From: Candidatus Uhrbacteria bacterium CG10_big_fil_rev_8_21_14_0_10_50_16
Lineage (GTDB): Bacteria; Patescibacteriota; Patescibacteriia; UBA9934; UBA11717
Assembly (NCBI GenBank): GCA_002774875.1
Contig: PCYM01000001.1
Coordinates: forward strand, 182,153-246,152
DNA length: 64,000 nucleotides
Direction of reading: 5' to 3'
Shown here: positions 19,783-59,518 of the stretch, piece after piece
How positions within the stretch are numbered: the first letter of the stretch is position 1
Layout of the letters: every line of letters begins with the position of its first letter
The notes under the pieces: generated by a model
What the model saw: the letters and a program-made list of their open reading frames with translations, nothing else
Told to the model about the DNA's origin: nothing
The model's database searches: none
Position numbers and translations under genes: made by a program

Positions 19783-21159
19783 CTACAATTCCGTAATTTT
19801 TTGACCGTCTGCTGTGTCATCCACGTGATAGCCCATGTCTGCAATCAATGACCTCAAGCGGTCTCCTTCCTCCCAGTCTTGTGTTTCACGCGCCACTTGT
19901 CGTTGATCAACCAGCTCCTGGACCTCTTCGGAAACCACGAGCGGTCGTGCAATGTAATCAATCAGCCCAAGCCCAAGCACCGCGTCCCATTTTTTGAGTG
20001 TTTGTGCCTTAGATGAGCTTGCGAGTTGAGAATCATTTACCAGCTCCCACACCAAGGCAATCGCACGTGGTGTATCTAAATCGTTATTTACCGCCTCTAA
20101 AAATCGAATATCAAAGTCAGCCGATCCAACTGAGGGCATCTCCCATTCTCGCACCATTTGACGAAGACGTTTGAGGGCGCTTTGTGCCGCCGCAAGCGAG
20201 TCCCAAGTAAAGTTAAGTTGCTGCCGGTAGTGCGCGGTCAGCGTGAGGTAGCGGAAAATCACCGGATCAAATCTCTTCTCGATCAACTGATCTGCCGTAT
20301 ACACGTTTCCAATCGACTTACTCATCTTACCGCCGTCTACGAGCAGAAATTCGTTATGCATCCACACGCGTGCCTCCGTAGTCCCTTTGCTACCCTGCGC
20401 TTGCGCCATCTCGTTGGGATGATGAATCATTTTGTGATCAATCCCGCCCGTGTGAATATCGTAGAGCTCGCCGAGCTCCTTAATGGACATAGCTGTACAT
20501 TCCACATGCCAACCGGGAAATCCAATACCCCAGGGAGATTCCCATTCCATTTGACGATGTTCCTCGGGTGAAGAGAACTTCCAAAGCGCAAAATCTGCTG
20601 AGTGTTTCTTTTCTGTGTTCTCTTCTATTCGTGCCTCCTCGTTTTCTGATTCCCCCATACCACGCAACACGCCGTAGTCGGCAAGCGTGGACGTATCAAA
20701 ATACACACCGTCGGAGGTTGTGTAGGTGTGTCCGTTTGCTTCGAGCTCCTGTACGATGGCAATCTGTTCTGCAATGTGATCTGTAGCCTTAGGAAGTGCA
20801 TCTGGTCGCGAAATATGGAATCGATCCATGTCCAGATAGAACTGATCTGTGTGGTGCTTTGCAACTTCCCATGCGGTCATCCCCTGCTCTCGCGACCCTT
20901 TTTCCATCTTGTCCTCACCCTGGTCCGCGTCGTCTGTCAGGTGACCTACGTCGGTAATATTCATCACCCATTTAACCTCCAATCCGTTAAAACGAAGGGT
21001 GCGTACCAAAATATCGGCAAAAATAAACGCGCGAAAGTTTCCAATGTGCTGCGTGTTGTACACCGTAGGCCCACACGTGTAAACACCGACCAGGTCTCGA
21101 TAAAGCGGTTCAAAAACTTCCTTTTTCTTTGTAAGCGAGTTGTAAAGCTGAATGTCCAT
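19783..21159 (-). CDS. cysS: Cysteine--tRNA ligase
   Basis: YTCGPTVY, HIGN, MNITDVGH, DFALWK, GFPGWHVEC, KMSKS. Confidence 0.97.
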   Translation of the reverse strand: MDIQLYNSLTKKKEVFEPLYRDLVGVYTCGPTVYNTQHIGNFRAFIFADILVRTLRFNGLEVKWVMNITDVGHLTDDADQGEDKMEKGSREQGMTAWEVAKHHTDQFYLDMDRFHISRPDALPKATDHIAEQIAIVQELEANGHTYTTSDGVYFDTSTLADYGVLRGMGESENEEARIEENTEKKHSADFALWKFSSPEEHRQMEWESPWGIGFPGWHVECTAMSIKELGELYDIHTGGIDHKMIHHPNEMAQAQGSKGTTEARVWMHNEFLLVDGGKMSKSIGNVYTADQLIEKRFDPVIFRYLTLTAHYRQQLNFTWDSLAAAQSALKRLRQMVREWEMPSVGSADFDIRFLEAVNNDLDTPRAIALVWELVNDSQLASSSKAQTLKKWDAVLGLGLIDYIARPLVVSEEVQELVDQRQVARETQDWEEGDRLRSLIADMGYHVDDTADGQKITEL

Positions 21160-21204
21160 AGTGAGGCTAGTTTACCAGATCTGTTGCAAACACAAAACCT
21201 GTAT

Positions 21205-21577
21205 AAAAGAACAGCCCCACCGAGACATTCGGTGGGGGCCGGGAGGGAGAGGTGGCGCCACCGAATGTTTCTCGATGGAACCGTTCTACTGTGTGGTTGA
21301 AGCGTAATTAGGCACTGTCACAAACGCTTAATCAACACACACAGGCCAGAATTTCCACGCAGGCGAGGGGGAATTCCTGCAATGGCTAGGGGACAGCACG
21401 GGGCGGCGTGCTGTCTCAACTGTAGCGTCTGGCGGCTACGATCCGTTATGAACCTGGTCGAACAGGTGCTGCAGCGTGAGCCACAACGCGATTTCCCCGT
21501 AGGAGAACCGTCATAACAGGACCTACGCGTGACATAAGGATCGTTGGGTCGAACGCTCCCTATGCCAGTCACGTATG
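21205..21577 (-). ncRNA. Candidate structured ncRNA B (~370 nt), family unknown
   Basis: Own promoter (TTGACA 21611-21606, 17 bp, TAATTT), nested helices, terminal CCCCACCGA hairpin plus U-rich tail; no credible ORF. Confidence 0.6.
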
Positions 21578-21582
21578 GCAAA

Positions 21583-21611
21583 AAATTATCACAATCCAAG
21601 AGCCCTGTCAA
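21583..21611 (-). promoter_or_regulatory. Sigma70 promoter of candidate ncRNA B
   Basis: TTGACA-N17-TAATTT with extended TG. Confidence 0.7.
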
Positions 21612-21621
21612 CCCCTGGATA

Positions 21622-21802
21622 CAACAACCCCACCATGAGTCGTTTGGTGGGGGAAGAGAGTCCCACCGTACGTAGGTGGGATTGCTGGTATGTCGTGCCT
21701 GATCGCCCGAGGACAATGCAACTGCACAGGCGCACGCGCGAGCGTGGGCACAGGCGGCACGGGGAAATCATGGCGGTTGGACCATGACGACCGTGCCGGG
21801 CA
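21622..21802 (-). ncRNA. Candidate structured ncRNA A (~180 nt), family unknown
   Basis: Own promoter (TTGACC-N17-TAGTTT), consecutive GC-rich hairpins ending in a CCCCACCA/TGGTGGGG terminator-like stem. Confidence 0.55.
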
Positions 21803-21808
21803 AGGAGC

Positions 21809-21837
21809 AAACTACCACAAACAAAAAAAGAGGTCAA
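21809..21837 (-). promoter_or_regulatory. Sigma70 promoter of candidate ncRNA A
   Basis: TTGACC-N17-TAGTTT with extended TG. Confidence 0.65.
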
Positions 21838-21874
21838 GCCCCTGCCTCTCCTATCCTTTTATGAGACAGGTTCG

Positions 21875-22399
21875 TTAATCTCGTGTTACACCGATGCAAA
21901 ATATTGGTGCCACAATCCACAAGATCGTTCCAAGCGGACTCATAAAAAGAGACTGCATAAATACCGAGAATCCACTCACTGTTTCTGCATTAAACTGTTG
22001 AAAGAGGATGACTGTCAACATTCCGAGTGCAGACGCAGACACAAAAACGGATGCCGCGCGCGAGCCTCGCTCCTCCTCTAATGTATCGCCAATTCCGTAC
22101 TGAACAATTGCAAACACGATTCCCGCAAGCCCGGCAATCACGCCAATGCGTCCCGGAATACTCGTTGGAATCCCAAACGTGCCGTGTATCCACGCAAGTG
22201 CTGCACTTACGCTCACGATTCCTACAACCACATAACCTGCGATCACAAACGCGAGCGTCTTCCCTCTCCCCCACATCCCAACAAAAAATGCGAGGCCTAC
22301 AAGTAAGGCCGTTAACAAAACATCCCAAGAAGGGTGCTCTCCAAAAATCGACAAGCCCCAGGCAAGTGCCGTGGCTGACCATTGTGCAAGTTGATCCAT
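21875..22399 (-). CDS. Hypothetical multi-pass membrane protein
   Basis: About 5 hydrophobic segments; start moved to MDQLA. Confidence 0.75.
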   Translation of the reverse strand: MDQLAQWSATALAWGLSIFGEHPSWDVLLTALLVGLAFFVGMWGRGKTLAFVIAGYVVVGIVSVSAALAWIHGTFGIPTSIPGRIGVIAGLAGIVFAIVQYGIGDTLEEERGSRAASVFVSASALGMLTVILFQQFNAETVSGFSVFMQSLFMSPLGTILWIVAPIFCIGVTRD

Positions 22400-22467
22400 A
22401 AAGACTAGTCTATCAAACTCGCGCCGCTTGTACGACGTGGATAAAAAGAACAGGCTCAATGCCTGCT

Positions 22468-30313: not shown

Positions 30314-30371
30314 ACAAAAAATCCGAGCTCGTCTCGGGTTTTTTGTTGGTACCTCCCGCGGAAATTGGACA

Positions 30372-30414
30372 AGGGGCACTGGGAAGGGAGAAATTCTCCC
30401 TTCCCAGTGCCCCT
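30372..30414. repeat. Perfect inverted repeat with 21-bp arms
   Basis: AGGGGCACTGGGAAGGGAGAA-a-TTCTCCCTTCCCAGTGCCCCT. Confidence 0.9.
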
Positions 30415-30522
30415 ATTATGAGGTTTAAAATGCGATCGACACCACGCATACACTCATATCTTATTCTAAATTAACAACACGGTGGGGTCCGGAGACCCCA
30501 CCGCTATCAGGAGTGGGTGCGT

Positions 30523-31008
30523 TCAGCCGCCGCCGCACCGACACGAGCTACGCTGACCGTGATCGCTGTTGCAGCAACCCTGCGCGTGACCCCAGTCGCG
30601 TTCACCATCCTCGGGCCAGATCTCGGTGTCGAGATCGGCGTACAGGCCGCACAGGTACTCACGGGTGCGCGCGTAGGTTCCCGGCTCCATCGATCCCGGC
30701 AGATCGCACGGGTCGTGGTGAAGGTAATCCACGCCCATGGACTGACAGAAGTCGGTGTACGGCTTGCTGTAGAGCAGGAACGTGTGCCACGCCTCATCGG
30801 CTAGATGTGACGGAGCAAGACGACGACCTTCCGGAACTGCGCAAGCGCGCAGGAACTGGATGGCGCCATCAAAGGCTCGACGGGCCACATCCTCGTCGAT
30901 ACTCATATTCTTGACCATGCGAGCTATCACGCGGTCACGAATGGATGAGTCGAGGTTGTAGTCGGGGAGTCGAATCTGAGACTCGACCAAACAAAGGGCG
31001 GCAGACAT
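30523..31008 (-). CDS. Glycine-rich-domain (GRDP/DUF1399-like) protein with Cys/Gly-rich tail
   Basis: PS..ADEAWHTFLLYSKPYTDFC......LHHDP motif; tail GCCNSDHGQRSSCRCGGG; SD GAGGT; hairpin at 30480-30503. Confidence 0.7.
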   Translation of the reverse strand: MSAALCLVESQIRLPDYNLDSSIRDRVIARMVKNMSIDEDVARRAFDGAIQFLRACAVPEGRRLAPSHLADEAWHTFLLYSKPYTDFCQSMGVDYLHHDPCDLPGSMEPGTYARTREYLCGLYADLDTEIWPEDGERDWGHAQGCCNSDHGQRSSCRCGGG

Positions 31009-59115: not shown

Positions 59116-59484
59116 TCGTCATTGCGCGTTTCACGAAGCAATCTATTTATTCTTTCTCTCTCCTTTTTGTTTCGCCAAAAAGGAGGCAAAAAGCATCGTG
59201 TCTGTACGGCGTACTCGTGGGGACACGCTGAGGGAACTCGCGATTTTGCTCACGATCAGATCAGCTCTGATCAATCCAGCCCTTCGCCCCCGAGGATATG
59301 TGCGTTTTGAAAGACGAAGCCTATGCGGAGAATTATCAAAACACGCATGTCCGAAGATGAGCGAGTTCGGCGAAGGATTTAAGCGTGATGAATAATGCGG
59401 TTAAGGTCCCTAGGCGGGCTCGGGATGACGGATGGTTTGCTCACGATCTAATCTGTTTCAGACTTCGTCGGCGAAGGATTTAAG
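59116..59484 (+). repeat. Composite REP/MITE-like element, long copy
   Basis: CGTCAT...ATGACG inverted ends (59117/59430); internal direct repeats TTTGCTCACGATC and TCGGCGAAGGATTTAAG; 57/60 identity to 9615-9674. Confidence 0.8.
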
Positions 59485-59518
59485 AAATAAAAAACACCCG
59501 CGCGAGGCGGATGTTTTT

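Follow-up and report, generated by a model that had tools for sequence, protein, structure and literature searches.

Several described RNA systems resemble the locus reported here in part. RsaE and RNAIII of Staphylococcus aureus and FsrA of Bacillus subtilis each have their own promoter and intrinsic terminator and expose C-rich, unpaired loops that can bind ribosome-binding sites (RBS), and the sections of the source used here describe the UCCC loop of RsaE as acting at the RBS independently of Hfq (PMC4152353). GOLLD, ROOL and OLE are, in the part of PMC12286853 drawn on, stand-alone and highly structured RNAs of several hundred nucleotides with unknown function. TIGR arrays share with our locus a CPR host, a stem enclosing two segments bounded by CCA and UG, and tandem units, as far as the accessible sections of two sources describe them (PMC12045711; bioRxiv 10.64898/2026.09.09.750476). 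T-boxes and pyr/trp-type attenuators lie upstream of an aminoacyl-tRNA synthetase gene and form alternative 3′ pairings. Further parallels are phage morons and autonomous accessory cassettes, which we take to be self-contained promoter-cargo-terminator units inserted between conserved genes, and Listeria LhrC, presumably a multicopy array that can be likened to tandem copies of the units described below.

We analyzed a stretch of 64,000 nucleotides (the window) from the genome of Candidatus Uhrbacteria bacterium CG10_big_fil_rev_8_21_14_0_10_50_16 (G000; 896 kb, 100% complete). Two units, U1 and U2, occupy the space from an orphan membrane-protein gene to cysS; the units and both flanking genes are encoded on the minus strand. 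We propose, with a probability of roughly 0.85, that these encode two stand-alone, stable RNAs of an uncatalogued, Uhrbacteria-restricted class, built as self-contained cassettes of a strong sigma70 promoter, a variable hairpin body, a conserved 3′ rod and a U-tract.

Having their own promoter and intrinsic terminator and no open reading frame (ORF), the units qualify as sRNAs at the sequence level. They differ from RsaE, RNAIII, FsrA and LhrC in showing no sequence or Rfam similarity to them, in the long two-state 3′ rod and in their bodies, which span 165–780 nt among relatives, and the C-rich motif is present in part of the family only. Relative to GOLLD, ROOL and OLE, as presented in the section of PMC12286853 used, the rod units have a narrow range and are poorly conserved hairpin strings with no conserved ornate fold and no Rfam match. 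The TIGR spacers described in those sections of the two sources are free 9-nt segments, whereas the U1/U2-type segments are 11–15 nt long and pair with each other; each rod unit also has its own promoter and terminator and stands without a Tas protein. In contrast to T-boxes and attenuators, the gene downstream of the units is served by a promoter of its own and is not the same in all relatives, and no T-box match is found here. Unlike phage morons, the units have an RNA cargo, are chromosomal and match no phage or plasmid; they resemble such cassettes in that a single slot can hold protein-coding or RNA cargo (genomes G120 and G050). The literature searched (titles and abstract openings, mostly of open-access papers) gave no description of these RNAs. 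We regard the kind, a stand-alone bacterial sRNA, as known and the arrayed, swappable frame with its two-state rod and range of 97–780 nt as a variant, one that we could not match to a described family.

Two predicted RNA genes upstream of cysS

The membrane-protein gene (194 aa, 21878..22459, minus strand), for which no Pfam family was found, lies upstream of U1, and cysS, encoding cysteinyl-tRNA synthetase (19783..21159, minus strand; PF01406, E 9e-88), follows U2. The features described below are likewise on the minus strand. The U1 promoter (21809..21837) comprises a -35 element TTGACC (21837-21832), a 17-nt spacer and an extended -10 element TG-n-TAGTTT (21817-21809), from which we infer the start of an RNA of ~185 nt (21618..21802) with a 5′ hairpin, a three-way junction and a 3′ rod. 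Abutting the U1 3′ end, the U2 promoter (21583..21611) has a -35 element TTGACA (21611-21606), a 17-nt spacer and an extended -10 element TG-n-TAATTT (21591-21583). The RNA of ~370 nt predicted from it (21205..21576) would form four hairpin or multibranch domains with C-rich loops (for example 21375-21364), followed by the 3′ rod and a U-tract. An earlier note on this DNA had described two minus-strand units that start with GGGG(C/-)TTGAC and end in CCCCCACC...GGTGGGG(C/T)TGTT, and both the start motifs and the endings are in place in each unit. Its reading of two non-coding RNA genes built on one plan, each with a promoter of its own, fits the syntenic units of a sister species, the covarying rod and the lack of an Rfam or coding explanation, as detailed below.

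The promoter-plus-3′-rod frame is all that U1 and U2 share; their bodies are barely alike (alignment score 54 versus 33±8 for shuffles), and each unit is single-copy in the genome. In U1, a junction segment (~21716-21711) and a linker before the rod (~21695-21690) are complementary over 4–6 bp and conserved in the sister species, and a pseudoknot between them is possible.

A promoter pattern derived from U1 and U2 occurs three times in the genome, twice at this locus. A looser pattern of -35 plus extended -10 occurs 102 times genome-wide, this locus included, which indicates that the promoter type is the ordinary one of this organism. A generic scanner called no promoter at the locus because each -10 hexamer matches at only 3/6 positions. 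The same scanner called the U2 terminator and not that of U1; U2 is followed by a clear U-tract but U1 by a weak one, so that some read-through from U1 into U2, giving a 600-nt RNA, is possible.

Both units fold more stably than dinucleotide shuffles (U2, z -8.1, 0/100 shuffles as good; U1, z -5.1, 0/200), and z ≤ -5 was reached by 3/120 random genomic windows of 185 nt. Bodies without the rod are only moderately structured (z -2.7 for U1 and -3.5 for U2), and in 8/10 units the more stable fold is that of the sense strand. A census of intergenic regions missed the locus, which is covered by chance ORFs, and a rod census of the genome recovered U2 and not U1. Elsewhere in the window, a very stable fold (z -8.7) is seen at 30346-30530, right after tRNA-Glu, where a hairpin near 30480 repeats part of the tRNA-Glu 3′ end.

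The earlier note saw no credible coding sequence, and comparison with the sister species bears this out: among 51 and 32 ORFs compared from both strands, none of the small ones agrees in start, length and sequence, and 9 of the 11 gaps in the U1 alignment are not multiples of three. The same comparison bears on the idea that the units are antitoxin RNAs of type I toxin-antitoxin systems, or antisense to an overlapping gene for a small peptide. The units resemble type I antitoxins in their size, their strong promoter and their anti-SD-like loops, but neither a conserved small ORF nor a complementary locus elsewhere in the genome was found, and we consider this highly improbable.

The 3′ rod and its two predicted folds

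Each unit ends in a rod hairpin of ~70–80 nt, a long two-state structure and more than a short terminator hairpin, which the earlier note had not described. Every full rod is laid out as four arms, which can pair as two short hairpins (1:2/3:4) or as one rod of ~25–35 bp (1:4/2:3). In 8 units the rod is predicted to be 5–17 kcal/mol more stable than the two-hairpin state, and in the G120a unit two hairpins are favored, the test having been mis-set for G002_U2 and G120_c. In U1 the rod (21622..21687) has a pyrimidine-rich apical loop (21661-21652), two short hairpins as its alternative fold and the weak U-tract. The U2 rod (21208..21287, ~30 bp) is similar to those of G120 and G050; its apical loop (21253-21241) has an unpaired CCUCC core, and an intrinsic terminator hairpin (21237-21215) lies inside it. 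Since the U run starts directly after the rod in most units, and not after the short hairpin, we favor a reading of the rod as a long terminator stem, which would also bury the 3′ end.

Conservation and covariation of the units

By blastn the region was found in 2/41 genomes, that of G000 counted. A sister species (G002) has two units at the corresponding position; their promoters are almost the same as one another, and its U2 measures 268 nt. The U1 sequences of the two species are identical at 126 of 168 aligned columns (75%; alignment score 160 versus 60±8 for shuffles), compared with 61 of 172 four-fold (silent) sites in cysS (35%). The preservation of U1 across species whose silent sites are saturated argues for selection on the RNA. 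U2 is conserved mainly in the rod (score 143 versus 94±8), and the bodies are weakly alike outside it.

A third genome of the same genus, g1, has one 164-nt unit before cysS (G001), so that g1 holds five units (U1 and U2 of G000 and G002, and that of G001). Between the G001 unit and cysS we noted a further hairpin block of 165 nt (L018:~1317-1490), which has a terminator-like end and no visible promoter.

The covariation that the earlier note proposed to look for is present in the 3′ rod. With arms picked by the analyst from the folds of 10 of 11 units (G120_c left out), 128/130 cells of the outer stem pair, including 21 G-U against 1 A-C, and the rod is thus specific to the RNA strand. This asymmetry, and the single locus, led us to reject a MITE or REP-type DNA repeat. 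When the five g1 rods were aligned, 97.9% of cells paired and 9 cells were changed on both sides; none of 500 shuffles came up to this result and slid controls gave at most 62%, a result that kinship among the sequences can inflate. RNAalifold on the two U1 sequences gave double changes in 2/38 pairs, in an alignment that is poor at its 5′ end.

Relatives in the order

We built a covariance model of the rod (R1) from the five g1 units. Order-wide, R1 gave matches in 26/151 genomes, most of the 19 weak matches inspected being ordinary terminators, and strong matches to the rod models (R1 and a second one, R2, described below) were restricted to 7/151 genomes. Full rods close ORF-free units in G007 (526 nt) and in G008 (555 nt), where the unit lies between tgt and a small membrane gene. 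G120 has an array of three units (259, 778 and 590 nt, the last of them less tightly closed at its end), and the same slot in G050 holds one 668-nt unit and one protein-coding cassette. In total, six other genomes have hairpin-rich, ORF-free units of 165–780 nt that end in related rods, and three loci are involved. The number of units per genome is one in G001, G007, G008 and G050, two in G000 and G002 and three in G120. These counts refine the earlier note's "two-component or duplicated" locus in that the units are no fixed two-component system.

A second model (R2), which already contained C-rich loops, matched in 21/151 genomes, with strong matches only in its training set and 14 weak matches inspected; a stricter pattern was found in 3/162 genomes. 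In a class-wide search, R1 matched in 15/151 genomes: two full-length matches outside the order were rejected as tRNA genes and seven others inspected as plain terminators. The rod resembles the acceptor stem of tRNA-Glu, but without a T-loop being kept. A pattern scan of metagenome contigs returned at least 120 stretches, and among those listed were two true members, both matching G007 over the stretch compared, a yield that says little of how widely the units occur. Viral contigs gave a single chance match, and blastn against phages and plasmids short chance matches only.

Promoter-led hairpin strings that lack a full rod, or are cut by a contig end, were found in G003, G005, G014 and G082. 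These predicted RNAs (L396, L395, L335 and L412, respectively) are ORF-free and 240–555 nt long with z of -4.5 to -18.6, and the three that were scanned had no Rfam match. The smallest related gene is that of G118 (L405:~1480-1580; G118:C3:~59400-59495), in which promoter, rod and terminator occupy 97 nt around the loop CCUCCUCCU.

In G025, G027 and G090, orphan protein cassettes are bounded by this promoter type and by 3′ ends akin to those of the RNA units. The G025 cassettes (L105:1800-7000) are in tandem, GC-rich and orphan, contain acidic repeats and have one promoter each, and their rod-like 3′ ends are related to those of the RNA units. The related ends of RNA units and protein cassettes indicate that the shared element is the frame, promoter plus 3′ module, and that the cargo varies. 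These cassettes, the mixed content of the G050 slot and the few genomes with strong rod matches are consistent with the units being near-neutral cargo of a Uhrbacteria accessory-cassette system, the frame normally carrying an orphan ORF and folded filler being kept as harmless. However, U1 keeps its sequence and fold despite saturated silent sites, the stems covary, no ORF remnants are shared between G000 and G002 and each unit is single-copy, all of which make filler unlikely.

Alternatively, the units could be protein-binding, scaffold or decoy RNAs of the ornate or sponge kind, the rod being a handle or an RNase III processing site and the hairpin bodies a variable payload. The 3′ half of the rod is similar between two families of the order, the 500–780-nt bodies are hairpin strings with compensatory changes (5/45 pairs double-changed between G007 and G008) and z down to -19.8, and an RNase III signature is present in the genome. 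Against this, no partner gene travels with the RNAs at their three different loci, no loop motif is repeated (GGA, 80 versus 85.6 expected; no 8-mer in more than 3/11 bodies) and the bodies turn over fast, presumably unlike GOLLD, ROOL and OLE. We regard this explanation as doubtful.

Independence from cysS

cysS has its own extended -10 promoter (TG-n-TAAACT, 21169..21177) 9 nt before the ATG, predicting a leaderless transcript, and the same arrangement was seen by eye at 16/30 cysS loci of the order. In G007, a homolog of the membrane-protein gene (tblastn, E 3e-18) ends 6 nt before cysS, with no gap at the junction. The leaderless promoter and the gapless junction together argue that the units are an insertion at this junction and not cysS leaders. 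Related rods also end RNAs beside other genes, in G007 and G008 and in G120 and G050. We conclude from this gene arrangement that the units are most simply described as inserted, stand-alone RNA cassettes.

The contrary case is that they are tandem attenuator leaders of cysS, comparable to T-box or pyr attenuators, in which the 3′ module would terminate transcription when folded as two short hairpins and allow read-through when folded as the rod. Units do precede cysS in 3/3 genomes of g1, every full rod has the alternative four-arm layout, the two-hairpin state prevails in G120a, and this genome uses T-boxes. The T-box model (RF00230, with Stem I and the UGGN antiterminator bulge), however, matches two other places and not this locus, and the cysS promoter, the related modules beside unrelated genes and the position of the U-tract after the rod in most units make attenuation very unlikely. 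The two T-box matches in this CPR genome are at C1:43791-44033 (L014) and C5:102532-102731 (L015), one of them over the Rfam cut-off at 96.8 bits.

Comparison with known RNA families and systems

No Rfam family matched the locus at E ≤ 10, the outcome that the earlier note had taken to favor novelty, and in the relatives' units Rfam gave only chance matches, outside the units or far below cut-off. That note had also seen no tmRNA, RNase P or SRP features, and the searches agree. The true tmRNA (RF00023) and RNase P RNA (RF00010) genes are on contigs C3 and C2, with no match here. SRP RNA was rejected on the lack of RF00169 and RF01854 matches, the absence of its partner Ffh from 5/5 genomes and the absence of 4.5S RNA from 9/9 genomes. 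6S RNA (RF00013) was not found in the genome with a model that missed 9/14 control genomes; the fold is the stronger test, and U1 and U2 have no closing stem between 5′ and 3′ ends around a central bubble, as 6S RNA does. A CsrB/RsmZ sponge was discarded since GGA is not enriched and a motif search gave no CsrA signature. A retron was likewise rejected, with reverse transcriptases in 1/5 rod-bearing genomes and on other contigs. The two reverse transcriptases of G000 (C8:2387-3013, L365; C10:90572-91186, L366) have motifs that we take to be of the diversity-generating-retroelement type.

The last comparison is with TIGR guide RNAs. In the rods of g1 and g4, two segments inside the stem are bordered by CCA and UG, and TasR systems of CPR bacteria use stem-loop arrays, in the section of PMC12045711 used. 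We therefore weighed an orphan set of stem-loop guide RNAs alongside a divergent housekeeping RNA (6S or SRP), a class to which the missing 6S RNA of this genome lends some room. With the criteria given in the accessible part of bioRxiv 10.64898/2026.09.09.750476 (paired intervals of box C, 9 nt and box D, at most 15 nt apart inside a stem), no TIGR units were found on either strand of the 11 RNAs. A near-identical test (gap ≤30 nt) did find runs of true units beside Tas at L384, L388 and L390, three of the ten Tas loci inspected. A Tas (Nop-domain) profile found nothing in G000, another Tas search gave hits in 0/5 genomes, and Tas-like proteins occur in 14/162 genomes of the order, none of them rod-bearing. 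Guide RNAs of the TIGR type were therefore rejected, and together with the missing Ffh, 4.5S RNA and 6S-type stem this leaves the pair of readings hardly credible. Most of the Tas-like proteins (L384 in G141, L388 in G129, L390 in G111 and others) are open frames of 430–650 aa, and several of the Tas-like loci have stem-loop TIGR arrays with CGA as box C.

C-rich loops and possible pairing with mRNAs

We tentatively propose that the units repress mRNAs with Shine-Dalgarno (SD) sequences by base pairing through C-rich anti-SD loops, a possibility that we place at somewhat less than even odds. The frame would probably have arisen by tandem duplication, followed by turnover of the body. The rod would end transcription as a long stem with a buried 3′ end and, in g1, hold a pyrimidine-rich loop open. 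Unpaired C-rich or CCUCC loops may then cover the GGAGG ribosome-binding sites of SD-led mRNAs, giving Hfq-independent repression like that by RsaE and RNAIII, to which leaderless genes such as cysS, many in this genome, would be immune.

Loop composition is consistent with such a role in g1. The C fraction of hairpin loops is 0.47 in the five g1 units, versus 0.35±0.03 in 60 shuffles (maximum 0.42), and 0.22–0.32 only in the six other units. CCUCC or CUCCU is fully unpaired in the rod loop of 4/5 g1 units (chance 0.02–0.05 each, in related units that are not independent tests). G000 U1 and all four distant units considered (G007, G008, G120b and G050) lack the anti-SD core in their rod loops. 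When the 11 units are pooled, CCUCC shows no clear enrichment (13 versus 8.0±2.8, with 20/300 shuffles reaching 13). CCUCC/CUCCU is the sequence of the 16S tail, and the G000 16S rRNA retains its anti-SD tail. The apical loop of the 97-nt G118 gene is a perfect anti-SD repeat and offers a minimal test case for the anti-SD model, in a gene found with R2, which already held C-rich loops.

A crude census of starts assigned 136 of 653 ORFs as SD-led and 85 as leaderless, with 432 unclassified; stronger pairing to SD-class starts is circular, the class being defined by GGAGG. A search of the genome for long complementary targets gave none, the longest matches being 15 and 14 nt where shuffles give up to 16, and no specific mRNA target stands out in the genome comparison. 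Signatures of RNase III, PNPase and RNase J are present in the genome by motif search, and that of Hfq was not found by it. The relatives' bodies of 500–780 nt are far larger than seed pairing needs.

Discussion

A wider form of the proposal joins the RNA and protein cassettes. One promoter-plus-3′-rod frame would have multiplied into arrays whose cargo is either an orphan protein or a rapidly evolving RNA made of hairpin strings. Rods that display a copy of the 16S anti-SD sequence would silence the GC-rich, SD-led accessory genes collectively and leave leaderless housekeeping genes active, or would act on mRNAs of phages or host cells. This is a speculative extension, and we think it quite unlikely to hold in full.

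The usual view of CPR bacteria is that they have lost most of their regulation. Here a sub-megabase genome spends two strong promoters on predicted RNA-only genes, and its relatives have up to three such units, of up to 780 nt. The family provides short, testable RNAs (97–370 nt) for gene regulation without Hfq and bears on the origin of the many orphan cassettes of these cells. If the anti-SD loops work as proposed, they would allow accessory genes to be silenced together in a cell in which many core genes are leaderless.
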